A stretch of DNA of 64,000 bases from positions 1 through 64,000 of IMG/VR virus record IMGVR_UViG_3300021093_000054; one strand, given 5' to 3'. Under the pieces are notes generated by a model. The model had not been told where the DNA came from. It worked only from the letters and a program-made list of their open reading frames with translations, and searched no databases. Made by a program: the position numbers and the translations under genes. This DNA is from a virus. Positions 46,329-61,873 of this stretch are shown in pieces (positions within the stretch are counted from its first letter, which is position 1; each line of letters begins with the position of its first letter).

Positions 46329-47231
46329 CTAATTTACCAAACTTTTTTGATAAATATTTTGGAATATGTAAGAAATTACATCAACGGTCCATCCATTACC
46401 AATCATTTTTTTTCTTTGGTTTAAAGTTGCAATTGATGTGTAGTTATCTGGTAGTGTTTGTAATCTTTCGTATTCCAGAATATTAAGTTCCCTTAAATTT
46501 CCATCAACAACAACACCATAGTTACAGGCCGTGTTTAGTGTATTTGTTTTACCGTGACTTACTCTACCTCTTCTTGTTTTACTCTTCGGAACTTCAAGGT
46601 TTACACAATCACCATTATTAGCATACAAATATCCTTGTTTTGTTCCATTCCTTATTTTAAAACCTTCGTCGTTTATATCTAACACAACAAGGTGGTCGTT
46701 TATTATTTTTTCTGAACCATCTGGTTTTAAAATATCTAAAATGTGAATGTTCTTATCTTCCATATTCTTATCAATTGGAATGTTAGTCCAATAAAGTCTT
46801 TGTCTTTTTTGAGCCGAAAAAAATTTACTGTCAATCATTATTGGTTCAACACCAATTGCGTCTGTTATAATTTTTTCCCATTCTTTTTTCATTACAACAT
46901 TTTCTAAAAGAAAATATGTTGGTTTTACTTCATTTAATATTCTAACATATTCCCAAAATAAACCACTCTTTCCGTCAAATCCTGTATTGTCACCTGACCT
47001 ACTAAATGATTGACATGGTGATCCACCTATAAGTAAATCAATTTTTGGTAATGTTGAGGTATCCAAACCTACAACACTACCTAATTGGATTGTATTTGGG
47101 AAATGGTGTTGTGTAAGGGAAATTGCGTGTTTATCAATTTCTGAAGCAAAATAATTATCAACTTCAATACCAGCTCTTTGTAGTGCTAGTTGTCCGCAGG
47201 AAATACCATCAAATAGACTCAATATATTCAT
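46329..47231 (-). CDS. DNA cytosine-5 methyltransferase (paralog 2)
   Basis: LSLFDGISCG, GGSPCQ, LLENV, Q.R.RLYW, GNGW. Confidence 0.93.
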   Translation of the reverse strand: MNILSLFDGISCGQLALQRAGIEVDNYFASEIDKHAISLTQHHFPNTIQLGSVVGLDTSTLPKIDLLIGGSPCQSFSRSGDNTGFDGKSGLFWEYVRILNEVKPTYFLLENVVMKKEWEKIITDAIGVEPIMIDSKFFSAQKRQRLYWTNIPIDKNMEDKNIHILDILKPDGSEKIINDHLVVLDINDEGFKIRNGTKQGYLYANNGDCVNLEVPKSKTRRGRVSHGKTNTLNTACNYGVVVDGNLRELNILEYERLQTLPDNYTSIATLNQRKKMIGNGWTVDVISYIFQNIYQKSLVN

Positions 47232-48027
47232 ATTTCATATTTTTGAATATATGTTCTATAATACCTACGGTCCAACCATTTCCTAACATTTTATATCTTT
47301 GAGTATTGGAAACAACTGAAGAATAATTATCTGGAACATTTTGTAATCTTTCGTATTCAACTGGTGTTAGCATTCTAATATTACCATTATCCATAACACC
47401 ACTCATTTGTTGATTACCAAATCCTTTATAATCTCTAGCAAGTAATGTTGCCGATTTATCACCACCAGGTTTATGTGTCTTTTTTTGGTTTGACACAATT
47501 ATATGTTGACCACTTAAAAGTATATCAGACATTTTTACATTTTTATCTTCTGGTTGTTTTATATTTGAAATGTTGGTCCAGTAGAGTCGTTTTCTATTTT
47601 GTGCAGAAACAAGATTACTATTTATTAAAATTGGTTCAACACCCATATGTTGTGTAATAACATCTTCATATTCTTTTTTCATCACAACATTTTCAAGTAA
47701 AAAGTATTTTGGTTTACATTCTTCCATTAACCTAACAAATTCAAAGAACAATTTACTTCGTTCGTCTTCGAAATTTAATTGTTTACCAGCAAATGAAAAT
47801 CCCTGACACGGACTACCACCAATAAGTAAATCAATTGGTGGTAGGTCAGTTCCTTTAACTTGTGTAACATCACCAATTTGTATTGTTTCTGGATAGTTAT
47901 GTTGTGTTACTTGTATTGCAAACTTATCTATTTCTGATGCAAAGTACTTATCATATTTAATACCAGCTTTGTTTAGTGCAATTTGTCCACAGGACATTCC
48001 ATCAAATGAAGAAAGTACATTCATCAT
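47209..48027 (-). CDS. DNA cytosine-5 methyltransferase (paralog 1)
   Basis: FDGMSCG, GGSPCQ, LLENV, QNRKRLYW, GNGW. Confidence 0.93.
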   Translation of the reverse strand: MMNVLSSFDGMSCGQIALNKAGIKYDKYFASEIDKFAIQVTQHNYPETIQIGDVTQVKGTDLPPIDLLIGGSPCQGFSFAGKQLNFEDERSKLFFEFVRLMEECKPKYFLLENVVMKKEYEDVITQHMGVEPILINSNLVSAQNRKRLYWTNISNIKQPEDKNVKMSDILLSGQHIIVSNQKKTHKPGGDKSATLLARDYKGFGNQQMSGVMDNGNIRMLTPVEYERLQNVPDNYSSVVSNTQRYKMLGNGWTVGIIEHIFKNMKYEYIESI

Positions 48028-48824
48028 AGATAGTCAAATAGTTCAGATGATTCATTACGAAGTCTACGAAGAGCTTTTTCTTTGATTTGTCTAACTCTTT
48101 CTTTTGTTAAGTTAAAATCTGACCCAATGTCTTCCAAAGTTCTTGGTGTACCAGTAAGGCCAAAATAGTCACCGATGATTGATTTTTCACGGTCGTCCAA
48201 AACATTAAGTAATGACAACAACTTGTCTTTAAGAATGTCTTTTGTATTAAACCCAGCGTCTGGAGCTACAGCATCTGGATTTTCAATAAGATCAATAAGT
48301 GTATCACCTTCTTCGTTGATATTCATATCAAGATTAATTATTGAAGGAAGTCGGGCAAACTTATCATCCAGTTTTTTACCGGATTGTTCAACTTCTTTTT
48401 TTGCTTTTTGTAAATCCTGGACAACATTAACTGGGAGTCTGATTGTTCTTGCATTGTCATTTAGGGATTGAATAATTGATTGTTTAACCCACCACACAGC
48501 ATATGAAATAAATCTTAAGTCTTTATTCCAATCAAAATTTTTAATTGCTTTCATAAGACCAAGGTTTCCTTCGGCAATAAGATCCGATAAATCAAGACCT
48601 TGATTCTGATACTGTTTTGCAACAGTGATAACAAAACGAAGATTTCCTTCCAATAGTTCGTCTTCTATTTTTTTTCTTTCTCTTTCCGAAATCTCTTCAG
48701 ATTTCATTTTCAAAGCAAGCTCCTTCTCACGATCTGGAGTCATAACTTTAATCTTTCTAATGTCTTTTAGGTAGTGATAAATTTCGTCCTGATTAATTGG
48801 GGCACCGATGTTCTTTTCCTTCAT
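48024..48824 (-). CDS. RpoD-family sigma-70 factor
   Basis: YLKDI, NLRFVITVAKQY, DLIAEGNLGL, RFISYAVWW, ARTIRLP, LTKERVRQIKEKALRRLR. Confidence 0.93.
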   Translation of the reverse strand: MKEKNIGAPINQDEIYHYLKDIRKIKVMTPDREKELALKMKSEEISERERKKIEDELLEGNLRFVITVAKQYQNQGLDLSDLIAEGNLGLMKAIKNFDWNKDLRFISYAVWWVKQSIIQSLNDNARTIRLPVNVVQDLQKAKKEVEQSGKKLDDKFARLPSIINLDMNINEEGDTLIDLIENPDAVAPDAGFNTKDILKDKLLSLLNVLDDREKSIIGDYFGLTGTPRTLEDIGSDFNLTKERVRQIKEKALRRLRNESSELFDYL

Positions 48825-48826
48825 AT

Positions 48827-49363
48827 TTATATTTGTTTCGAATATTCGTCTAGTTTGTCTTTCTCAGCTCTTGTTAATGAGCCAATTCCATTCTGTAAAA
48901 TCTTATCCAAAATTTCGTCAAGAGTCAAGTCACATACTTGATTTTTCAAAAATTCTTCAACACGAGTATTATGTTCTTCCATAAATTTCTTTATGTCAAA
49001 AATAGGTTTCTTATCCATAAATATTTCTTTAACACGATTTTTGGTTTTTGGTTTCCTACCTTTTTTGTTTAATTTCTTCAAATGTTCCAAGTGTTCTGGA
49101 AGCATATTTGATGTCATAAATTTTGTTGTCTGAACAAGAACATACATAAAATCTGGTTTTTCATTATGTATTAAATCAACGTAGATTGTAAGTTCTGGTT
49201 GACACATATCAGATTCAAAGTGAAATATTGTATGGTTGTCACCAAAGACATAGGTAATATCATCAGATTTTGAAATTGTTGACAGTTCTTCAGCGATTTT
49301 TTGGTTGGTTTCTTCTTTGTCCCAGTTATTGTCGCAGGGATAGACGAATAGTAAGTATTTCAT
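48827..49363 (-). CDS. Hypothetical protein with C-terminal DUF6576-like motif
   Basis: LDEILDKI...G..SLT..EK..L; own TATCTTTG promoter at 49384-49391. Confidence 0.7.
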   Translation of the reverse strand: MKYLLFVYPCDNNWDKEETNQKIAEELSTISKSDDITYVFGDNHTIFHFESDMCQPELTIYVDLIHNEKPDFMYVLVQTTKFMTSNMLPEHLEHLKKLNKKGRKPKTKNRVKEIFMDKKPIFDIKKFMEEHNTRVEEFLKNQVCDLTLDEILDKILQNGIGSLTRAEKDKLDEYSKQI

Positions 49364-49445
49364 AGATTTTTATTTTGGTTCAACAAAGATAGTGAAAATA
49401 TTGGTTTCTAAACTAACTTTTTTTAAAAAATATTTTCAGACTATA

Positions 49446-49744
49446 ATTGTGATTACATTTTATTTGTTGATGGTTCACAATAAACAACCTCTAAACCGAA
49501 CTAACTAAATAGTTGTGATTACCTTCCATTTAAGTATGATTCACAATTTTATTAAATATGGATAGTATATTGTCCGAGTTGTGATTACCTTTCATTTAAG
49601 GATGATTCACAATGCGCACTGCCGGTTTGTCCGAACGATTTTTGTTGTGATTACCTTTCATTTAAGGATGATTCACAATTTCAATCGTTGGGGATGAATT
49701 ATACGGCAGTTGTGATTACCTTTCATTTAAGGATGATTCACAAT
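49446..49744 (-). CRISPR. CRISPR array: 5 repeats (36 bp), 4 spacers (29, 30, 30, 30 bp)
   Basis: Minus-strand repeat ATTGTGAATCATCCTTAAATGAAAGGTAATCACAAC, identical at 49709-49744, 49644-49679 and 49578-49613, 2 mismatches at 49512-49547, degenerate at 49446-49481; the degeneracy gradient points away from tnpB. Confidence 0.97.
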
Positions 49745-49851
49745 GTGAATTAGGAAACTTTACTATTGAAAGGTTCTTATCATCAACAGAAGTTGTAACC
49801 AACTTCCTCCGAATAATTAAATTGGATGTCACACCACCCAGTTTTTGTTTC
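49745..49851 (-). ncRNA. Putative tracrRNA/omega-RNA-like scaffold and leader between tnpB and the array
   Basis: Hairpin GAAGUUG-GUUA-CAACUUC (49789-49806) and anti-repeat GUUGAUGAUAAGAACCUUUCA (49787-49767), complementary to the repeat 3' part UGAAAGGUAAUCACAAC. Confidence 0.65.
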
Positions 49852-51030
49852 CTATTTTTTTAAACTGTCAAAGAACTTTTTTGTCCCTAAATCTCTAATG
49901 TTTAAGGCAGCATTTAAATCTCTATTCAAAATTTCACCACAATTTTCACATTTCCAGATTCTATCTTTTAATTCTAAATTTTTATTAATTGTCCCACAAC
50001 AATTACATTTTTTACTTGTTGGTTCAAATCTACCAATTTCAACTAAATATTTTCCACTATTTTTTGTTTTATAACCAATCATAGTTTTAAATTTACCAAA
50101 ACCAACATCAATTATACTTCTATTCAATCCAGATTTTTGTTTTACATTTTTACCAGGATTTTCTTTTGTACCTTTACTTGATTTTGTCATCCCTTTAACA
50201 TTTAAATCTTCCATACAAATCAAATCATAATTATCTACTAATTTTTTTGATTCGTTATGTAAAAAATTTTCTCTTGTATTAGCTACATTTTCATGTATTT
50301 TTGAAATGTTTTTTTTTATTTTTTTATAGTTGTTTGACCCTTTTTTTGCTCTTGCTAATTTTCTTTGTAAGACAGTTAGGTGTTCTTGATTTTTAGTTAA
50401 ATGTTTTGGATTTTCTATTACTTCGTTATCTGATGTGACAACAAATGCTTTTACCCCCAAATCTATACCAACACTTTTTTTAACTTCAACTTTTTTAAAA
50501 TTATTTGTGTACTCAACCATAATTGAGACATAATATTTATTGTGTTTTTTTGAAATTGTTACGGTTTTGATTTTACCTTCAATAGGTCTATGATATTTAA
50601 TTTTAATTAATTTTTCAACCTTTGGTATTTTCAAATAGCCGTCATATGTAATATATAAATTTTTAGAATTTTGCTTTGTACTTGGTCTTGTTGTAAAACT
50701 TTGAGTGGTGTCGGATTCTTTTTTGAATTTTGGGTAACCCCCTTTATTTTTAAAAAAATTTTTATATGCCTTTGATAAGGCCTTCATTTCATTACAATAT
50801 ATGTTTACATCATATTCGTTTAGAAATGGTGCTTTTACTCTATAATTTTTTATATGATAATTTAATCCAAAATGTGATAAATTTGATTTACCACCCAACT
50901 GATAAATTTGTTTTTCACAATCTAAAGAAACATTATAAACATATCTTCCGGCTTTGAAAGCCCCTTCAAAATATTCTATTTGTTTCTCTGTTGGGTAAAT
51001 CCTATATTTATATGCTTTATTTTGTTTCAC
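49852..51030 (-). CDS. tnpB: TnpB-family RNA-guided nuclease, CRISPR-associated, RuvC intact
   Basis: AYKYRIYPT HTH; RuvC-I GIDLG, RuvC-II MEDL, Zn finger CNCCG..CENCG, RuvC-III RDLNAALNI; GTG start. Confidence 0.93.
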   Translation of the reverse strand: MKQNKAYKYRIYPTEKQIEYFEGAFKAGRYVYNVSLDCEKQIYQLGGKSNLSHFGLNYHIKNYRVKAPFLNEYDVNIYCNEMKALSKAYKNFFKNKGGYPKFKKESDTTQSFTTRPSTKQNSKNLYITYDGYLKIPKVEKLIKIKYHRPIEGKIKTVTISKKHNKYYVSIMVEYTNNFKKVEVKKSVGIDLGVKAFVVTSDNEVIENPKHLTKNQEHLTVLQRKLARAKKGSNNYKKIKKNISKIHENVANTRENFLHNESKKLVDNYDLICMEDLNVKGMTKSSKGTKENPGKNVKQKSGLNRSIIDVGFGKFKTMIGYKTKNSGKYLVEIGRFEPTSKKCNCCGTINKNLELKDRIWKCENCGEILNRDLNAALNIRDLGTKKFFDSLKK

Positions 51031-51049
51031 AATACAAATATAGGATTTA
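50996..51049. repeat. 14-bp perfect inverted repeat around the tnpB start codon
   Basis: taaatcctatattt (50996-51009) / aaatataggattta (51036-51049). Confidence 0.8.
51035..51042 (-). promoter_or_regulatory. TAnnTTTG promoter for tnpB (leaderless)
   Basis: TATATTTG-TATT-GTG, same 4-nt spacing as five other genes. Confidence 0.7.
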
Positions 51050-51053
51050 TTTT

Positions 51054-53432
51054 TTAATTGGTCAAAAGTTTTGAGATATTATTTTGTTTTGTAATTTTTA
51101 TCACACAATCTGCCCATTGTGAGACCATAGGATTGTGAGTTATTACAAACACTTTATCAAAGTATTCCTTAATCTTTACAAAAAATTCAGACACCATCTC
51201 CAAGTTGTCATTACTTATTTTACCAAATACTTCGTCGAATACAATCAGATTGGGTTTTGGTAGAGAACATACTTTACTCAAAACTGATCTTAAGGCGAGT
51301 GATGCAATTGTTTTTTCATATCCGGACCCACTAACCATTAACTTTTCAACACCAGTATTATTATCTACCTGGATAAACTCAACCTCGGATTTATCATTAA
51401 TTCTGATTTCTAATTTGAAGTAACAAGAATCTTCCATCAACCTTTGTAATTCAGAGTTAATAAGTGGCATCATAGTTTTCATAATAATTTTACTAACACC
51501 ATTCTTACCATAACTTTCAAGATACATTTTATAAATCTTATCCTTACTTTCTTCTTCTTTAATTTTTACAATTAAATTTTTGTTATTGGTAATCTTTTCC
51601 TTATTTGATTTAATTGTATATTCATTTGTGTTAATCTGGTTATTCTTTTCTTTTAAAAGTTTATCATAACTTTCAAGTTTCAAGTCAGCTTTAATTAACA
51701 TAGAATCAATCTGGTCGTTTGTTTTAATCTTGTCCTGGACCTCACCCCACCTTTTTAATTTATCTTCAAACCCAGAAATTTTCAAGTCACAACTTTCAAC
51801 ACTCAAATCATATTTTTCTTTGATAAGTTTGTTTTTCTCATACTCATCAAATTGTCTTTTTGTCTCAACAAATTCTTTTTCTTTGTTGGTTAAATCCGTC
51901 ATTAACTTCTCAATAACCTTTTTTTGTTGTGTAAATCCATCAAGTTCAGATATTTTTTGTTGTGTAATTGCTGCGTTCATAAGTTCAATTCCACAGTGTT
52001 CACATTTAATACCACCCTTTACTTCTGACTTTAATTTTTCAATACCAGAAATCTTTGTTTCAAGTTCTATTTTTGAATGGAACTTAGTTTTATACTCATC
52101 TTTTACTTTGTCGTGTTTATCTTCTTCATAAAATTGTTCTGGTTCAACAACCTTTAGTGTTGAAAGTAGGTCAACATAAGATTGTCTTTCTTTTTTCAAA
52201 GTTTCTATTTGTGATTTTGTTGTTTCTGGATTAAGTAAGGCAATTTCTTTATCGATGTCTGAATGTTTCTTTTTTAACATCGAATCTCTATAATCTTTTC
52301 CTTTTGCTATACCATCCTCAATTTCTTTTACTTCACTTTTAAGAATTTCAATTTGTCCTTCAAGTTCTGTGATTTTACTTTCAAAAGATTCAATATCTTG
52401 TTTTAATTCTTCTGAATTATAGATATTTGATAATTTTGACTTACTAAATGATGAATAAATTTCTTTTGCAACTTCTTCCTTTTTCTTTAAAAATTCAAGA
52501 CCCATAAATCTTGAAAGAACTTGTCCTCTGGCTGTTGGTTTTGCTTCTAATAATTCTTCTAGGTTTGTTGCCGTTGTAAGAATTGTCATTAAGAAATCTT
52601 CCTTGGTCCCAATTGAACTTTTAATGAAGGCTTCAGTTTCTCTTCTTTGTTCTCCGGTAAAGTTCTGTAAAGAACCATCGTGTAGTTTTTTAAAGAAATC
52701 AAGTTCTGTTTTAACATTCCATTCACCTTTCTTTGATTTTTTTCTTTCAATTTTTCTTAAAATTATATAATCTTCACCATCAATTGTGATTTCACCTTTA
52801 ACAACAACCTCATCTTTATCAGAAAATCTATTAAAAACTTCTTCAGCTTTTGATGTCTTTGTTGTTTCATTGAAGAACAAGAACATTAGTAAATCCACCG
52901 TAAGAACCGTCTTGCCACCAAAGTTTGGTGGGTCCGATTCAACAACAACAATTCCATTCAACTTGTCAAAATCAAGTCGTTGGTTTTCGCCATATGATAA
53001 GAAGTTGGAGAACTCAATGTTTCTTATGTACCACTTTTTAAACTGTGTTGTTTCAGAATCATCTTCTTTCATTTTATTCTCAACCATTTTATTCAAATCA
53101 AGAATTTCTGTAAGATGTTCTCCATACCCTTTGGATTCCAAAAATTTCTTTAACAAATCAAGTTGATAGTTAACGTCAGTTATGTTCATTGATACATCAA
53201 CTGTTTGCATAGTTTCTGTGTCAACATTTTTTACTTTTGTAACAACATTAACATTTGTAGTGTTATACTTTTTTTGAAAGTAGTGTTTAACACTCTTCAT
53301 TTTGTCTTGTGTGAAATTTTCTTGTAGGTCTTCCCACACCACCTGGATAGATGGGTTTTCAAACTTTGAAAAATCCAAATCTTTTATCATAATATTGTAA
53401 TTGTATAATTTTGGTGGATTAAATAAATCCAT
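51054..53432 (-). CDS. sbcC: SbcC/Rad50 (T4 gp46-like) ATPase with N-terminal extension
   Basis: FSNFLSYG, NFGGKT Walker A, long coiled coil with CEHC hook, SGYEK signature, VFDEVFG, ITH. Confidence 0.88.
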   Translation of the reverse strand: MDLFNPPKLYNYNIMIKDLDFSKFENPSIQVVWEDLQENFTQDKMKSVKHYFQKKYNTTNVNVVTKVKNVDTETMQTVDVSMNITDVNYQLDLLKKFLESKGYGEHLTEILDLNKMVENKMKEDDSETTQFKKWYIRNIEFSNFLSYGENQRLDFDKLNGIVVVESDPPNFGGKTVLTVDLLMFLFFNETTKTSKAEEVFNRFSDKDEVVVKGEITIDGEDYIILRKIERKKSKKGEWNVKTELDFFKKLHDGSLQNFTGEQRRETEAFIKSSIGTKEDFLMTILTTATNLEELLEAKPTARGQVLSRFMGLEFLKKKEEVAKEIYSSFSKSKLSNIYNSEELKQDIESFESKITELEGQIEILKSEVKEIEDGIAKGKDYRDSMLKKKHSDIDKEIALLNPETTKSQIETLKKERQSYVDLLSTLKVVEPEQFYEEDKHDKVKDEYKTKFHSKIELETKISGIEKLKSEVKGGIKCEHCGIELMNAAITQQKISELDGFTQQKKVIEKLMTDLTNKEKEFVETKRQFDEYEKNKLIKEKYDLSVESCDLKISGFEDKLKRWGEVQDKIKTNDQIDSMLIKADLKLESYDKLLKEKNNQINTNEYTIKSNKEKITNNKNLIVKIKEEESKDKIYKMYLESYGKNGVSKIIMKTMMPLINSELQRLMEDSCYFKLEIRINDKSEVEFIQVDNNTGVEKLMVSGSGYEKTIASLALRSVLSKVCSLPKPNLIVFDEVFGKISNDNLEMVSEFFVKIKEYFDKVFVITHNPMVSQWADCVIKITKQNNISKLLTN

Positions 53433-54805: not shown

Positions 54806-55541
54806 ATGAATTTATTGAGAATTTTAGAAATGGTCTTGGGTTTTCAAGATCGGTATATGTATATTCCTTGGTTTCGAAATCATAAATTCCGAACCCGTGG
54901 TTTCTAATACTTTCACCTATGTTCTGTTGAATTGGTGATCCAATCATATATCCTTTACCTGTTTTGAATTTAAATTCCTGTCTTTTATGAATATCACCAC
55001 ATAATACAATATCAAGTCCGTTGAACTTTTCAACATCATATGCTTCTTCACCAAAGTCAAACCCTAAATCCGTTTTCATGCCTTGGATTGGTCCGTGAAA
55101 TAAACCAACTTTAATACCTGTTGCAACATTCAAATCTGGTGGAATATTACCCTGGTATTGTGAATAAACACACCAACTAACATTTTCATCTTCATAAACA
55201 CCTCTATCTCTATAATAGACAATATTTTTGTTATTTAATGAATTAATTATTGGTGTTAAGGTATCCAGCCTATCTAAATTATTTATGAGTGCGTCGTGGT
55301 TCCCTGGGATGATAATTGTTTTTGTGATTTTGGAACATTCGGTCAATACCCAACTTACAATTTCTATTAATTCAGGACTAACAGTGTTTTTTGAATGAAC
55401 GAGGTCTCCAGTAAATACAATTCTATCTGGTTCAATCTCTCTCCATTGATTGAGTGCATCTTCCATAATTGACCTATAAAGGTCGTGGTCTTTAAATAAT
55501 CTGATATGAAGATCAGAGAAATGACAAATGGTTTTGATCAT
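54762..55541 (-). CDS. sbcD: SbcD/Mre11 (T4 gp47-like) nuclease
   Basis: SDLH, GDL, PGNHD, FHG, GDIHK, YMIGS..QQN.GE. Confidence 0.88.
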   Translation of the reverse strand: MIKTICHFSDLHIRLFKDHDLYRSIMEDALNQWREIEPDRIVFTGDLVHSKNTVSPELIEIVSWVLTECSKITKTIIIPGNHDALINNLDRLDTLTPIINSLNNKNIVYYRDRGVYEDENVSWCVYSQYQGNIPPDLNVATGIKVGLFHGPIQGMKTDLGFDFGEEAYDVEKFNGLDIVLCGDIHKRQEFKFKTGKGYMIGSPIQQNIGESIRNHGFGIYDFETKEYTYTDLENPRPFLKFSINSFDDIENGTELLKNL

Positions 55542-55632
55542 ATTGTTTGTTTTTTTAAAAAATATACAAAATATTTTAATTTTTCAATACTTAAAAGATA
55601 TGTATATATATAAATGTATTAATATTTTTATT

Positions 55633-56475
55633 ATGAAAAAAAATACTTGGACTAATGAAGAAATTGAATTTTTAAAGGTAAATTACCCAATAAAAGGTGT
55701 TGATTTTTGTGTTGATAATTTAAATTACACAAAATCTAAAATATTTGCAATGACTCACAAACTAAAACTTAAAATGTTACCTAACATTAAGAAAAAATAT
55801 ACGGGTAAACCAAACAATCTATGCAATGTAAATCCTTCAAAATTTGAAAATATTGTTGATAAAGATGTTTCTTATTTCCTTGGTTTGTTATGGGCTGATG
55901 GTCATATAATACATTACAAAAGAAATTACCATATTGTTTTAACTATGTTAGAAGATGATATTATGAATATTAAATGGATTTTAGATAAAGTTGGTAAATG
56001 GAACTATAATAAAATTAAAAAAGGGTCAGAAAACTGGAAAAATCAGATTCGGATTACAACAAACAATAAGAGAATATACGATATATTATATAAATATGAT
56101 TTTACTAAAAAATCAAAGTTTTCACCAGAAAAGTTGTTAAATTCTATACCTAATGAACTACATAGTTACTTTTATTTGGGACTCATAGATGGTGATGGTT
56201 GTTTTTACATCGGTAGAACAAAAAAATCAACAGTAAGACAATTTTCAATTTCATCAACCTACGAACAAGATTGGTCTTATCTTGAAAAATTGTTTAATTC
56301 AATGGATATCAAATTTTCTATTAATAGGTATAATAGGAAATCTGGTAGTTCTTATTCTTTTATTAGAGTTTCAAATAAAAAAGACATTACAAAAATTGGT
56401 GAATATATCTATAAAGATATTGATAGATTTGGTTTAGATAGAAAGTTTTTTAAGTACAACCAAATAATTTCATAA
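55633..56475 (+). CDS. Free-standing double-motif LAGLIDADG homing endonuclease
   Basis: YFLGLLWADG and FYLGLIDGDG; N-terminal WTNEEIEFLK; opposite strand to neighbours; start moved to 55633. Confidence 0.85.
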   Translation: MKKNTWTNEEIEFLKVNYPIKGVDFCVDNLNYTKSKIFAMTHKLKLKMLPNIKKKYTGKPNNLCNVNPSKFENIVDKDVSYFLGLLWADGHIIHYKRNYHIVLTMLEDDIMNIKWILDKVGKWNYNKIKKGSENWKNQIRITTNNKRIYDILYKYDFTKKSKFSPEKLLNSIPNELHSYFYLGLIDGDGCFYIGRTKKSTVRQFSISSTYEQDWSYLEKLFNSMDIKFSINRYNRKSGSSYSFIRVSNKKDITKIGEYIYKDIDRFGLDRKFFKYNQIIS

Positions 56476-59486: not shown

Positions 59487-59708
59487 ATGCCAATAGACAT
59501 AACAATTAACGATATTTCTGGACAAACACCTTTTGATATATATGTATGTAACACAGGACAAACTTATTGTGTGTATTCGGCAACAATAAATTCTGGTGAC
59601 TTACCTTACACGTTTGAGGTTCCAATACCATTTATAAATTCTGAAGGTGTTAATTTAAGAATTGTTGATGATAATGATTGTCAGATAAATGAAATACTTC
59701 TAATATAA
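59487..59708 (+). CDS. Small Cys-containing structural protein
   Basis: TATTTAT upstream; translationally coupled to the next gene. Confidence 0.7.
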   Translation: MPIDITINDISGQTPFDIYVCNTGQTYCVYSATINSGDLPYTFEVPIPFINSEGVNLRIVDDNDCQINEILLI

Positions 59709-61873
59709 TGGCTTGTATTGAAAATAATTTTTGTATAAATTCTGGTGGTAATTTATTTGATGGACAATATACCACAGATAGTAATACTTATAATGGTTTT
59801 ACATCATATACAGGTGATAGTGTACCATTTTTTATTTATTATTCATTAACAGAAGATAGATGGTGTTTATCAACAAGTTTTGGTGGTAGTTGTTTACAAT
59901 TTGGTCCAGTCGGTGTTGGGAGTGATTGTCCTGATTTTGACGAAAGTTTTTTTATTACCGGTGTCTGTATTACAACAACTACAACAACATCACCTTGTGA
60001 TGTTTTTAATTTTGAAGCTATTTTTGATTGTTTGGTTCCAACAACTACAACAACAACTAAGTTACCACCAACAACCACAACAACGACAACAATTCCTTTT
60101 GATCCTTGTACTGGTGTTTCGGTTAGTGCATCAATTACTGCTTATACAACTACAACTACCACAATTCCAGTAACTACAACCACAACAACAGGAGTTATCA
60201 GGCCTTGTAATTTTGATGGCATTGTTACTTTCAATACGTTTGACGAATATATGAGATGTGGTAATAGTAAGAAATTTAAAGATTGTTTAACTGGGTTTGA
60301 ATATTTTTCAAATGGATTAATCTTCAATGAATCTGGTGACACTTTGATTCAAAATTGGGTTTATAAATCAACAATTAATGGTATTTCTACTTGTGTTTCG
60401 TTTTTAGGTCTTGTCGATAACATTAGTGGTTCAGATTTAGTTGTGATTAATGAAACATTGGGTTCTGAATTTCAAGGTGCTTGTTTAGAATGTGTACCAG
60501 ATTCTACGACAACAACAACGACCAAAGGACCTGCTGACTACTTTGTTGAGTGTGGTGATGGTTTTTGTCCTTTCGGTAATGTAAATTTTGGCCCTAGAGA
60601 CAATCTTTCAACACTATTCAATTCTTGGAATAGATTTGCTCTTTTTGCCCCAAATAAATATCCTGGTTTATCCACATTAACTGGATTACAATCTAATGGT
60701 ATTCTTATAACTAATGATCCATCTTATTATTTTTGGACTGGTAGTACCAATTATTTGGGGGCATTTAATCTTGTAATGACAGAAGGTGAAAATGTTGGTC
60801 CAGTAGCTTCAGATTTTAGTAATGTTGATAAGTTTTATTATAACACGTATATTAATAAAATGATTTTTTCTTACGATGTTGGTGGAAGTAGTACATATCG
60901 ATGGTCTACGTTTGACCCAACAGCCAATGTAAGTACCGCTTTAGGTAACCCAACAACAACACAATATTTAACAACTTCATCAAATTGGAAAATATCTGGC
61001 TTAACAAGTGTCCAATATACTGTCAGTGGAACTAGTAATACCGTTGTGTTAGCACAACAAAAAATACTTGATGCTGGTGGTACTCCTGAAATGATTCAAT
61101 GTGTTCAAAATAGTGCTTTTGGAAATGGATTTTATAGTAATTGTGAATACACTAATTATGTACACGAAGTTACTTTAGGTAGTACTGATAATGATAATGA
61201 TAAGATTGGTATTGTTTTAGCAGCTAAAAAAGGTTTAGGTAACAATCCTAAGGTTACTGATATGTTATCTTTAATCTTTAATGGTACAAATAATCGTGTT
61301 AATGTTGATTATAATCCATACCAAGATGTTTATGCGTTTAACAATAATATGGGTTTAACAAGTGTTACGATAATGACTGGAGCAACAAATCCATTTGGTG
61401 CTGGTAATTATAACGTTAAGGGTCAAGTCAGAATTAAAATTATTAAAACAAATACTACTATTAGTATATATACAACACAACGTATGGGTCCATTAGGTAT
61501 TGTACAGTCTGGAAATCCAAATCCATACACTCTGTTATATCAATTTGACTTAACAGATAAAACTACTTGGAATGCAGCACCTAATTATGCTTTGGGTAAT
61601 GAACTTTTGAAATTCACAGGTGGGACAAGTTTTGGTTATCTGACAACATCACAACGTAAAAGTCAATTTTATGACATTTTATTTTCGAGCACACAACAAC
61701 CTTCTGGTATTTTATATAGTAAAACAGTTTCGAATCCTATTTTAGGTAAAGTTTATTCATTTATTGATGTTGATGGTTGTTTCATATATAGTGGCAGTAC
61801 GTTTAATTTTTCAAATTCTGATTTGGTTGATTTAACGATTGAAACTGTTAATAATAGTTGTCAAGATTGTTAA
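59708..61873 (+). CDS. Cys-rich, poly-Thr-linker structural protein with possible C-terminal lectin-like beta-sandwich
   Basis: Multiple TTTTTT linkers and Cys modules; DNDNDKIGIV segment. Confidence 0.7.
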   Translation: MACIENNFCINSGGNLFDGQYTTDSNTYNGFTSYTGDSVPFFIYYSLTEDRWCLSTSFGGSCLQFGPVGVGSDCPDFDESFFITGVCITTTTTTSPCDVFNFEAIFDCLVPTTTTTTKLPPTTTTTTTIPFDPCTGVSVSASITAYTTTTTTIPVTTTTTTGVIRPCNFDGIVTFNTFDEYMRCGNSKKFKDCLTGFEYFSNGLIFNESGDTLIQNWVYKSTINGISTCVSFLGLVDNISGSDLVVINETLGSEFQGACLECVPDSTTTTTTKGPADYFVECGDGFCPFGNVNFGPRDNLSTLFNSWNRFALFAPNKYPGLSTLTGLQSNGILITNDPSYYFWTGSTNYLGAFNLVMTEGENVGPVASDFSNVDKFYYNTYINKMIFSYDVGGSSTYRWSTFDPTANVSTALGNPTTTQYLTTSSNWKISGLTSVQYTVSGTSNTVVLAQQKILDAGGTPEMIQCVQNSAFGNGFYSNCEYTNYVHEVTLGSTDNDNDKIGIVLAAKKGLGNNPKVTDMLSLIFNGTNNRVNVDYNPYQDVYAFNNNMGLTSVTIMTGATNPFGAGNYNVKGQVRIKIIKTNTTISIYTTQRMGPLGIVQSGNPNPYTLLYQFDLTDKTTWNAAPNYALGNELLKFTGGTSFGYLTTSQRKSQFYDILFSSTQQPSGILYSKTVSNPILGKVYSFIDVDGCFIYSGSTFNFSNSDLVDLTIETVNNSCQDC

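Follow-up and report, generated by a model that had tools for sequence, protein, structure and literature searches.

A stretch of viral DNA (the window: 64,000 nt, positions 1 to 64,000 of IMG/VR record IMGVR_UViG_3300021093_000054) carries a tnpB gene followed on the same strand by a structured segment and a short CRISPR array, and we consider it likely that together they form a TnpB-CRISPR cassette of the TranC or type V-U kind, domesticated and carried by a phage. Three relatives of the encoded protein, at loci L008, L167 and L168 (53%, 55% and 54% identity), are each followed by a scaffold homologous to that of the window and, on the same strand, by an array in which 36-nt repeats alternate with unique spacers of 30 nt; judged from this sequence comparison, the pairing of tnpB and array is not a chance neighbourhood. 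Half-way TnpB-CRISPR systems of this kind are already in print as type V-U6 to V-U45, TranC and TranC9. What the present analysis adds to an earlier, sequence-only reading of the same DNA is the apparent kinship of the repeats with those of type VI-B (Cas13b) arrays.

Organisation of the cassette

The protein of the window belongs to the TnpB (IS200/IS605 OrfB) family, with its domains, its acidic triad and its CxxC...CxxC motif all present (Table 1). Three Pfam profiles score above cut-off (HTH_OrfB_IS605 at 45.8, OrfB_IS605 at 97.5 and Cas12f1-like_TNB at 73.1 bits) and the NCBIfam model guided_TnpB reaches 295.9 bits against a cut-off of 100; the Cas12f2 and C2c8 models of NCBIfam stay far below theirs (63 versus 450 and 158 versus 350). 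The RuvC triad (D190, E274 and D371) and the zinc ribbon (C342, C345, C361 and C364) are invariant in an alignment of 43 clade members, and both sets of motifs line up with a TnpB-like PDB chain. The best structural matches to an AF2 model of the protein (mean pLDDT 84.3) are ISDra2 TnpB (8h1j; TM 0.71/0.76) and ISFba1 TnpB (8iaz; 0.73/0.74), with AsCas12f (0.66/0.62) and LaTranC (0.65/0.55) behind them. LaTranC, the sole TranC sequence compared, thus fits less well in structure than ISDra2 TnpB, and in sequence it aligns over the C-terminal part alone (residues 230-381, 75 bits). The sequence-only reading had described a 392-aa TnpB of classical IS605-OrfB architecture with all RuvC acidic residues and a zinc finger, and ORF, Pfam profiles, invariant residues and structural matches agree with it: the fold is classical and the active site intact.

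Table 1. Features of the cassette, in window coordinates
Feature	Position	Strand	Basis
Cassette promoter: TTGACC (51065-51060), 17 nt, TATATTTG (51042-51035), 4 nt, GTG start	51035..51065	-	consensus scan and four-cassette alignment
tnpB, 392 aa, HTH + RuvC + zinc ribbon	49852..51030	-	ORF call (GTG start), Pfam/NCBIfam profiles, alignment
Conserved 107-nt scaffold (tracr-like or leader)	49745..49851	-	alignment with L008, L167, L168
Scaffold stem 1	49823-49840	-	four-sequence alignment
Scaffold stem 2	49789-49806	-	four-sequence alignment
Scaffold segments complementary to repeat	49766-49774 and 49745-49751	-	four-sequence alignment
Repeat 1, perfect, tnpB-proximal	49709..49744	-	repeat search and pattern match
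Spacer 1, 29 nt	49680..49708	-	sequence, spacer comparison
Repeat 2, perfect	49644..49679	-	repeat search and pattern match
Spacer 2, 30 nt, G+C 53%	49614..49643	-	sequence, spacer comparison
Repeat 3, perfect	49578..49613	-	repeat search and pattern match
Spacer 3, 30 nt	49548..49577	-	sequence, spacer comparison
Repeat 4, 2 mismatches	49512..49547	-	repeat search and pattern match
Spacer 4, 30 nt	49482..49511	-	sequence, spacer comparison
Repeat 5, terminal, degenerate: 29/36, internal CCTT/AAGG stem gone	49446..49481	-	hand count on letters

The repeat search returned a single family of five copies with periods of 66, 66, 66 and 65 nt, counted from the distal end, and the perfect copies were matched by the forward pattern, with no match for the reversed-pattern control. 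Between the tnpB stop codon (49852-49854) and the first repeat lie 107 nt. Recomputation therefore returns what had been read from the letters, namely five same-strand 36-nt repeats and four unique 29-30-nt spacers at that distance from tnpB, with the identical copies nearest the gene and the degenerate one distal. All four spacers differ from one another. Searches of the phage collection INPHARED for protospacers of the window, L167 and L168 arrays gave chance-level matches only (E 0.5 to 5); 15 spacers, compared at up to four mismatches with the 73-kb record and all local loci, had no match outside the arrays they come from; and in a comparison of the window array with five phage records the repeats matched and no spacer did. 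No other copy of the exact 36-nt repeat was found among viral contigs, in a search that may have left out the record itself. The consensus scan recognised no terminator downstream of the window array. In the L167 and L168 arrays the last repeat is truncated, and behind it, on the tnpB strand, come a G+C hairpin and a T-run; this terminator fixes the direction of transcription for those two loci.

The segment between gene and array appears to be maintained as a structured RNA. In the alignment of the four sequences, from which the structure itself was drawn, pairing holds in 93.7% of cells, compared with 45-50% for slid partners, and nine pairs show compensatory changes, compared with one to three; at the four loci the scaffold helices and both scaffold-repeat helices stay paired through such changes. 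The window scaffold folds with z = -3.26, and Rfam returned nothing below E 0.2 on 49300-51200. Duplexes between each linker and its own repeat reach -13.9 to -15.7 kcal/mol; shuffled sequences give -8.1 to -11.0, and out of 1000 shuffles 14 to 66 do as well as the own duplex. Among the window, L167 and L168 the crossed duplexes are as good as the own ones. The complementarity would fit a tracr anti-repeat and a type VI-B leader-first-repeat hairpin equally. Pairing of the leader with the first repeat is a reported feature of type VI-B (PMC13187072), and the bacterial VI-B leaders folded here were also complementary to their first repeats.

On its upstream side, the conservation of the four cassettes ends about 45 nt before the tnpB start, at the promoter, with no left-end structure. 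The consensus scan lists this promoter as TTGACC-17-TATATT at 51065..51037. The layout common to all four aligned cassettes is TTGAC or TTGCA, TAnnTTTG, 4 nt and the start codon, and TAnnTTTG at -12 to -5 is the flavobacterial sigma-A -7 box (PMC9723704); the tnpB mRNA would be leaderless. In the window the promoter overlaps the last codons of an sbcC-like gene, whose stop codon (51054-51056) lies 23 nt from the tnpB start (51030). The earlier observation on this side, of 23 bp to sbcC with little room for an IS left end, survives recomputation of the distance and alignment of the cassettes, in which the promoter alone is conserved. Around the tnpB start the window has an inverted repeat of 18 nt (50996-51013 / 51032-51049); it is not conserved in the three relatives and is not taken for an IS left end.

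Kinship of the repeats and origin of the array

The window repeat is identical at 22-27 of 36 positions to repeats that adjoin Cas13b genes in Bacteroidota, a level reached by none of 200,000 shuffles. The L008 repeat, which was not the search key, agrees in register with repeats linked to Cas13b at 21-27 of 36 positions, a score equalled by no more than 7 of 200,000 shuffles. Repeats of 36 nt with spacers of 30 nt are also the dimensions of the VI-B arrays of Bergeyella, Sphingobacterium and Capnocytophaga, and the orientation to the upstream effector gene is the same. With the arrays of Bergeyella zoohelcum, Sphingobacterium hungaricum and Capnocytophaga stomatis the window further shares 12-17 nt of the repeat 3' end and the complementarity between leader and first repeat, but its effector is a TnpB and not a Cas13b, and the nearest bacterial repeat found is identical at 27 of 36 positions. 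In its 36-nt repeat of the Bacteroidota VI-B family and its spacer length the array agrees with type VI-B, yet no cas13b gene adjoins it: the Cas13b model NF038190, which finds its target in the Bergeyella and Sphingobacterium genomes used as positive control, has no match in the four TnpB records or in the further phage record described below.

The sequence-only reading had called the system a candidate nascent type V effector. Nascent would imply an array born from the guide RNA of TnpB itself, and this is not supported, the repeats being of the VI-B kind and not significantly similar to the ends of the omega-RNAs that belong to the nearest ordinary TnpBs. An idea formed by eye, that the repeat derives from the canonical omega-RNA 3' end, was dropped when z values from local alignment, with shuffles as the reference, ranged from -1.9 to 1.5; the scaffold, compared with the canonical omega-RNA of ordinary TnpBs, gave z of -1.3 to 1.5. 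Because the repeats resemble those of VI-B arrays and do not resemble ordinary TnpB guide-RNA ends, the array probably goes back to a host-type array, by capture or copying, and was not grown from the omega-RNA of its own TnpB.

The same repeat family is found beside another TnpB-derived effector. In a 362.6-kb phage record (G806), a Cas12f-like protein of 509 aa, TnpB-derived and unrelated to the TnpB lineage of the window, is encoded 255 nt upstream of about 18 repeats of this family. A scan for the window-type repeat end returned the arrays L176, L181 and L187, of the TnpB-linked subtype, all accompanied by a TnpB-derived gene. As a separate observation, other phages have the window-type repeat 3' end together with a type I-Fv-like effector set.

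A wider scenario is unlikely but worth stating. A TnpB lineage confined to phages could have taken over a VI-B-style host array together with its leader hairpin and now parasitise the spacer acquisition of the host; the transcript may serve both the phage TnpB, against DNA, and the host Cas13b, against RNA, and with a common "repeat currency" arrays could pass between unrelated effectors in Bacteroidota and their phages. If true, this would illustrate concretely how TnpB may lead to Cas12 through insertion near a pre-existing array.

A first alternative explanation is a dual-use or parasitic array of true VI-B type, with its leader hairpin, in which TnpB reads repeat-then-spacer to cut DNA, host Cas13b reads spacer-then-repeat to sense RNA and a host Cas1-Cas2 of II-C type loads the spacers. 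The repeat matches of the window and L008, the common sizes and orientation and the leader pairing known for VI-B (PMC13187072) all agree with it, as does the gain of spacers in trans by VI-B arrays of Flavobacterium columnare, via II-C Cas1 (PMC8092290). We nevertheless regard it as improbable, given that the best bacterial repeat reaches 27/36 whereas hijacking mini-arrays reportedly match host repeats exactly (PMC11656645), and that the last repeat of L167 and L168, being without its 3' half, would make the last spacer useless to an effector that reads spacer-then-repeat and not to one that reads repeat-then-spacer.

Conservation of the cassette among relatives

Whether close homologs adjoin arrays could be answered for three loci with retrievable flanks, all on viral contigs: an array stands next to tnpB in each and an ordinary IS right end in none, which goes against the possibility, left standing by the sequence-only reading, that such homologs never neighbour arrays. 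A TnpB-like clade with a conserved downstream same-strand array, as in TranC and type V-U, is therefore present. The count of four cassettes in four refers to the window and three loci out of about 46 clade clusters, none of them from subclade P0003-P0018 (16 rows), and the four cassette-bearing members make up at least three clusters at <80% identity; the other clusters include P0001, a 95% relative. The loci have no flanking protein in common with one another and lie in unrelated gene contexts.

In a quick maximum-likelihood tree of 85 rows, all four array loci fall within one clade of 46 rows (SH-aLRT 100, stem 0.88), and all 13 loci with a canonical IS right end lie outside it, IS_L061, a mistranslated row with 32 stops read as X, being left out of this count. 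TnpB relatives at 36-45% identity outside the clade have no array, and have their omega-RNA inside the ORF tail and a GTTCAY end just past the stop codon; no right end of this type occurs in the cassettes. Among 160 loci of more distant TnpBs, a k-mer script detected arrays immediately behind the gene at two, L008 and L124, and L077 has an array of the L124 type that the script missed. Profile scans of metagenomic and viral sequences with the 43-sequence alignment were swamped by generic TnpB motifs and gave only relatives at 30-45% identity, except for L008; neither scans that used one protein at a time (that of the window, P0011 or P0016) nor a scan for the L008-type repeat pattern added clade members. 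At E<=1e-60, none of 401 sampled Sphingobacteriales genomes yielded a member of the clade, and in two of 401 Flavobacteriales genomes TnpBs were matched that are just 36-40% identical.

The cassette shows neither the TnpA or multiple copies nor the ends of an IS200/IS605 mobile element. Domains of Y1 transposase, Cas1 and serine recombinase are absent from the whole 73,218-base record, about 25% of the genome by CheckV, while the same searches gave matches in 6, 7 and 12 of 14 control genomes; of the earlier statement that the DNA holds no Y1 or serine transposase and no cas1/cas2, it is the part on Y1, serine recombinase and Cas1 that stands, for this record. Across the four TnpB records, which are fragments 8-64% complete, there is no Y1_Tnp or Resolvase and no TnpA, Cas1 or Cas13b, and tnpB is single-copy in each.

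These patterns bear on a second alternative, in which the array works solely with a host Cas13b (or Cas9) as a hijacking mini-array and tnpB is what is left, next to it, of an IS that had inserted into the array leader. Viral arrays that exploit host effectors exist (PMC11656645, PMC7162821), and like the window array they are short, lack adaptation genes and have host-like repeats; the host VI-B character of the window repeats and the VI-B-like leader-repeat hairpin would suit this explanation. Those mini-arrays, however, have host-identical repeats and no effector of their own, whereas the window cassette includes a conserved effector gene (PMC11656645, PMC7162821). What makes the alternative decidedly improbable is that tnpB, scaffold and array have been kept at the same spacing and strand across 45-55% protein divergence and four genomic contexts, and that it leaves unexplained the intact active site of TnpB and the Cas12f-like effector with the same repeat family; the constant company of a TnpB-derived gene at L176, L181 and L187 also counts against it. 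An ordinary, possibly decaying tnpB-only IS200/IS605 element beside an unrelated array is very improbable, for although NCBIfam and PHROGs label the protein TnpB or transposase and TnpBs are very frequent in phages, there is one copy per record without left end, GTTCAY-type right end or TnpA, and the array is kept in all four clade members with flanks and is rare downstream of the 160 more distant TnpBs.

Proposed mode of action and place among known systems

As a domesticated TnpB-CRISPR cassette, the locus would be transcribed from its Bacteroidota-type promoter, starting at or beside the tnpB start codon, into one transcript that presumably covers tnpB, the roughly 107-nt scaffold and also the array. 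TnpB is expected to bind the scaffold, two segments of which would pair with the 5' and 3' parts of the repeat, leaving the spacer 3' of the repeat as guide; this register is a prediction and follows the order in TnpB and Cas12. The RuvC site D190/E274/D371 would then cut matching DNA beside a TAM/PAM, the likely targets being competing phages or other mobile elements of a putative freshwater Bacteroidota host. The array, perhaps with its leader, may come from a host-type VI-B array, capture or copying being the most likely origin given the VI-B kind of the repeats, and new spacers may be supplied by host Cas1-Cas2.

The closest published counterparts are the TranC systems, described as transposon-CRISPR intermediates (Jin et al., Cell 2025, via PMC13565253; bioRxiv 10.64898/2026.03.27.714800). 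They share with the window a TnpB-like nuclease followed by a short same-strand array, a scaffold or tracr between the two and the lack of adaptation genes. CauTranC9, from a Caudoviricetes genome, comes nearest, as it is TnpB-sized (clade average 414 aa) without REC/WED expansions and, like the window cassette, phage-borne with five repeats (bioRxiv 10.64898/2026.03.27.714800); repeats of TranC clade 9 are, however, 38 bp long, versus 36 nt in the window. The available parts of PMC13565253 and bioRxiv 10.64898/2026.03.27.714800 make no mention of VI-B-type repeats in TranC. Types V-U6 to V-U45 are branches of TnpB in which an array is conserved downstream and cas1/2/4 are lacking (Altae-Tran et al. 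2023, PMC10691335), and the window resembles V-U and Cas12f systems in its TnpB-type effector with a downstream array, although the Cas12f2 and C2c8 models fall short here. That survey left out arrays linked to non-type-V systems, and the window repeat family is shared with VI-B (PMC10691335). The TnpBs of ISDra2 and ISFba1 (8h1j, 8exa, 8iaz) agree with the window protein in fold and size (TM 0.71-0.76, 28-30% identity), triad, zinc ribbon and a guide expected 3' of the scaffold; the window cassette differs from them in having neither TnpA nor ends, in a scaffold that lies past the stop codon and not in the ORF tail, and in several array guides in place of one fixed by the flank.

Two routes by which TnpB-derived effectors may have acquired arrays, duplication of an omega-RNA segment or insertion near a pre-existing array, were named and left open by Altae-Tran et al. 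2023 (PMC10691335). The array clade offers a testable case for the second, because its repeats are like those of a host CRISPR type that works with another effector, and unlike the guide-RNA ends of the nearest ordinary TnpBs. A natural multi-guide nuclease of 392 residues would, if active and content with a short PAM, be a candidate for a very compact, multiplexable editor, and the cassette suggests that freshwater Bacteroidota have phages which bring an effector of their own and may rely on the adaptation genes of their hosts.

One RNA-library run held only pieces of a tnpB variant of about 96% identity and does not show transcription of the cassette. In three DNA runs examined, contigs break inside the array, with no alternative spacer content; the window stretch itself is present in 21 lake-water DNA sequencing runs.

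A conserved tnpB-array cassette in phages

The pairing of a TnpB gene with a CRISPR array in the window is real: the coordinates and the layout of repeats and spacers given by the sequence-only reading were reproduced. The 392-aa protein is, judged by its sequence, a textbook TnpB, with three Pfam domains and a score of 296 bits against the NCBIfam guided_TnpB model (cut-off 100), and it falls far under the cut-offs of both the Cas12f2 and the C2c8 models. The three RuvC acidic residues that the reading had picked out (D190/E274/D371) are invariant across 43 aligned relatives, and so are the four zinc-ribbon cysteines. The structures closest to the AF2 model (pLDDT 84.3) are ISDra2 TnpB (TM 0.71/0.76) and ISFba1 TnpB (0.73/0.74), while AsCas12f (0.66/0.62) and LaTranC, one of the transposon-CRISPR intermediates (TranC; 0.65/0.55), rank lower.

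The gene lies 23 nt past the stop of an SbcC-like gene, and its own stop is followed after 107 nt by the array, in which a repeat search found five 36-nt repeats with a period of 65-66 nt. Three repeats are identical, one has two mismatches and the tnpB-distal one matches at 29 of 36 positions (counted by hand); the four spacers, of 29-30 nt, are all different. The IMG/VR record behind the window is a virus fragment with a length of 73,218 bases (29% G+C, estimated completeness 25%), and it carries T4-like replication genes. The window stretch was found in 21 lake-water DNA runs, all from one year; the sequencing runs examined yielded nothing on cassette expression or array turnover. No protospacers were found, either for the window, L167 and L168 arrays in a phage collection or for spacers in local loci and five phage records.

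A homology search returned one relative at 95% identity, about 43 clusters at 52-64% and the next at 46% or less. Flanks were obtained for three relatives, all on viral contigs: L008 (53% identity), L167 (55%) and L168 (54%). Close homologs do neighbour arrays, since the tnpB-then-array layout is the same in all three. The L008 array (36-nt repeats, 30-nt spacers) starts 146 nt past the tnpB stop and is preceded by a half-degenerate "repeat 0". L167 and L168 have five and six full repeats, respectively, each plus a truncated one, with unique spacers, and both arrays are followed on the tnpB strand by a G+C hairpin and a T-run. No two of the four loci have a flanking protein in common. What is conserved is the cassette and not its neighbourhood, and the adjacency of tnpB and array is meaningful.

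Coordinates of features in the window and in other retrieved loci
Feature	Location	Strand	Remarks
tnpB ORF, 392 aa	49852-51030	minus	GTG start
Gene 3' of array, 178 aa	48827-49363		no family match
TAnnTTTG-type box TATCTTTG of the 178-aa gene	49364-49400 (region)		~22 nt before ATG; read by eye
Two adjoining C5 DNA methyltransferase genes (300 and 272 aa, 23-nt overlap), then a sigma-factor gene	46329-48824 (region)	minus	just downstream of array
HNH-type endonuclease gene	55528-56475	opposite	adjoins SbcD-like gene
Inverted repeat, 18 nt, 94% complementary	50996-51013 / 51032-51049		brackets tnpB start
Short periodic word, three copies (k-mer scan)	59974-60145		inside 721-aa ORF 59708-61873
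Two blocks of type I-E-like 29-nt repeats, period ~61 nt	L124:5375-6219; L077:4373-5159		after TnpB
Cas12f-like gene and array of G806 (362.6-kb phage record)	L187:1-900; L211:4022-6104		array crosses contig ends
3-4 periodic repeat units	L020:2784-2957; L026:2687-2931		directly upstream of distant TnpB genes; viral contigs

Promoter and absence of transposon features

Relatives outside this group (36-45% identity) have the classical arrangement, with the omega-RNA written into the ORF tail and ending in GTTCAY a few bases past the stop codon, beyond which the sequences diverge. A quick ML tree (85 rows) groups all four array loci in a single clade of 46 rows, with an SH-aLRT of 100 and a stem of 0.88. 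The 13 correctly translated loci that have canonical IS ends all branch outside this clade; one further row, which was mistranslated, is disregarded. The reported absence of transposase and cas1 was borne out: domain searches for Y1 transposase, serine recombinase and Cas1 were empty in all four records, with positive controls detected, and each record has a single tnpB of this kind.

Upstream of tnpB, conservation among the four loci is limited to about 45 nt and reveals no left-end structure, only a promoter (TTGAC(C/T) or TTGCAC, 17-18 nt, TAnnTTTG, 4 nt, start codon), in keeping with the earlier remark that there was little room for an IS left end. TAnnTTTG at -12 to -5 is the flavobacterial sigma-A -7 box (PMC9723704), and its spacing to the start codon predicts a tnpB mRNA that would be leaderless or nearly so. 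The inverted repeat at the tnpB start was rejected as a left end, as none of L008, L167 and L168 preserves it. Of its two arms, one is the spacer between the genes and one codes for the conserved KYRIYP motif; the structure could mask the start or terminate the sbcC transcript. On the other side of the array, the 178-aa gene has its own TAnnTTTG-type box, and the array transcript probably need not extend into it.

Host-type repeats and the likely mode of action

CRISPR-associated TnpB is a kind already in print, of which the window cassette is a further member. Altae-Tran et al. (2023, PMC10691335) describe 40 TnpB branches (V-U) with downstream arrays and without other cas genes, and TranCs, which arose repeatedly from IS605 and IS607 TnpBs, have the omega-RNA split into tracrRNA and crRNA (PMC13565253). 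TranC9 of a Caudoviricetes genome, with phage-targeting spacers (bioRxiv 10.64898/2026.03.27.714800), resembles the window in its TnpB-sized effector, phage setting and five repeats, though these are of 38 bp and not 36 nt. The first interpretation, a domesticated phage TnpB using CRISPR guides, was largely right, though for a known kind; the most interesting feature of the cassette is its host-type, VI-B-like repeat family. In excerpts of the literature searched we found no statement of a TnpB-type effector with VI-B-type repeats, which does not prove that there is none.

A scan of one-genome-per-species prokaryote contigs took as key the 12-nt 3' end of the repeat, required twice at the distance expected in an array, and gave 11 loci in 10 genomes, all labelled Bacteroidota. 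Among selected ORFs checked within 2-kb flanks, five of these genomes have a Cas13b above the NCBIfam cut-off immediately upstream of the array and on its strand: Bergeyella, Chryseobacterium, Sphingobacterium, a Bacteroidales MAG (also with Csx28) and Capnocytophaga stomatis. The L008 repeat, which lacks the key, agrees in register with the Cas13b-linked ones at 21-27 of 36 positions, a level reached by at most 7 of 200,000 shuffles; for the window repeat the figure is 22-27 of 36, and 15 of its 24 non-key positions agree with Sphingobacterium. Compared with the omega-RNA of the closest ordinary TnpBs, neither scaffold nor repeat is significantly similar (z -1.9 to 1.5). The array thus seems to have been taken over, or copied, from one of VI-B type, and the term "nascent", in the sense of an array grown from the effector's own guide RNA, is not supported; Altae-Tran et al. 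(2023, PMC10691335) leave both routes open.

The 107-nt scaffold between stop and first repeat is alignable across the four loci. RNAalifold predicts two hairpins within it, and two helices that join its last ~30 nt to the first repeat, one to the 3' part and one to the 5' part. With this structure 93.7% of cells are paired, a share that drops to 45-50% when partners are slid, and nine pairs have compensatory changes, against one to three. Own linker-repeat duplexes are stronger than shuffled-linker ones, which reach them in 14-66 of 1000 cases. This pairing fits a tracr-like anti-repeat without proving it, because there are only four sequences, the alignment used to score the structure also supplied it, the linkers of the window, L167 and L168 are interchangeable in pairing with one another's repeats and, above all, leader pairing with the first repeat is a described VI-B feature (PMC13187072) that also appeared in the bacterial leaders folded here.

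We consider it probable that the cassette is domesticated: a single transcript would carry tnpB, scaffold and array, the scaffold and one repeat would form the body of the guide RNA of TnpB, the spacer on the 3' side of that repeat would be the guide, and the RuvC site of TnpB would cut matching DNA. A repeat-then-spacer reader is favoured by the last repeat of the L167 and L168 arrays, which lacks its 3' half: a TnpB-type reader is thereby spared a superfluous guide, whereas an effector that reads spacer then repeat, such as Cas13b, would lose the use of the last spacer. The same truncation weighs against dual use of the array by TnpB and host Cas13b, which is unlikely. It is quite doubtful that the mini-array depends on the host alone and that tnpB is the relic of an IS next to it; this leaves unexplained why tnpB, scaffold and array stay linked and why the active site is intact. 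Chance adjacency, set against the layout shared by the relatives, is very improbable.

Other effectors beside the same repeats

The same key matched 19 loci on 12 viral contigs, two of which are L167 and L168. On four (L169, L171, L175, L183) the array is flanked by Cas7fv-, Cas6- and Cas3-like genes; L172, L177, L180, L182 and L184 are placed with them by the same ORF pattern. These arrays have 36-nt repeats, 30-nt spacers and up to 21 repeats, two or three arrays occur on each of three contigs, and the L171 repeats have a 15-nt duplication of the 3' end. The repeats share their final 14 nt with the TnpB- and Cas13b-linked ones, and the contigs look like a phage type I-Fv-like system with the same repeat end.

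G806, also among the 12 contigs, has about 18 repeats of the family, and 255 nt upstream of them a 509-aa Cas12f-like protein (Pfam TNB 82 bits; PDB CnCas12f1 8e-36); a search of the record gave no match to Cas13b. Its array crosses the contig ends, and the closing unit of the contig is identical to the opening one; the "direct terminal repeat" on which its 100% completeness call rests may therefore be no more than the CRISPR repeat.

With arrays beside Cas13b, TnpB, Cas12f-like and Cas7fv/Cas6/Cas3-like genes, one repeat family is shared by at least four kinds of effector in Bacteroidota and phages. Dependence on a common host adaptation machinery would fit this pattern but is not shown by it. 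Flavobacterium columnare VI-B arrays gain spacers in trans through II-C Cas1 (PMC8092290), and use of host Cas proteins has been proposed for huge phages with host-like repeats (PMC7162821).

Among 160 distant-TnpB loci, a k-mer script found arrays directly downstream only in L008 and L124; L077, which the script missed, carries the array of L124. The TnpB of L124 and L077 (contigs of 267-306 kb) is of a different lineage, 35% identical to that of the window, and these loci add another, unrelated instance of a TnpB next to an array of host style. The periodic word in the 721-aa ORF of the window is probably a coding repeat.
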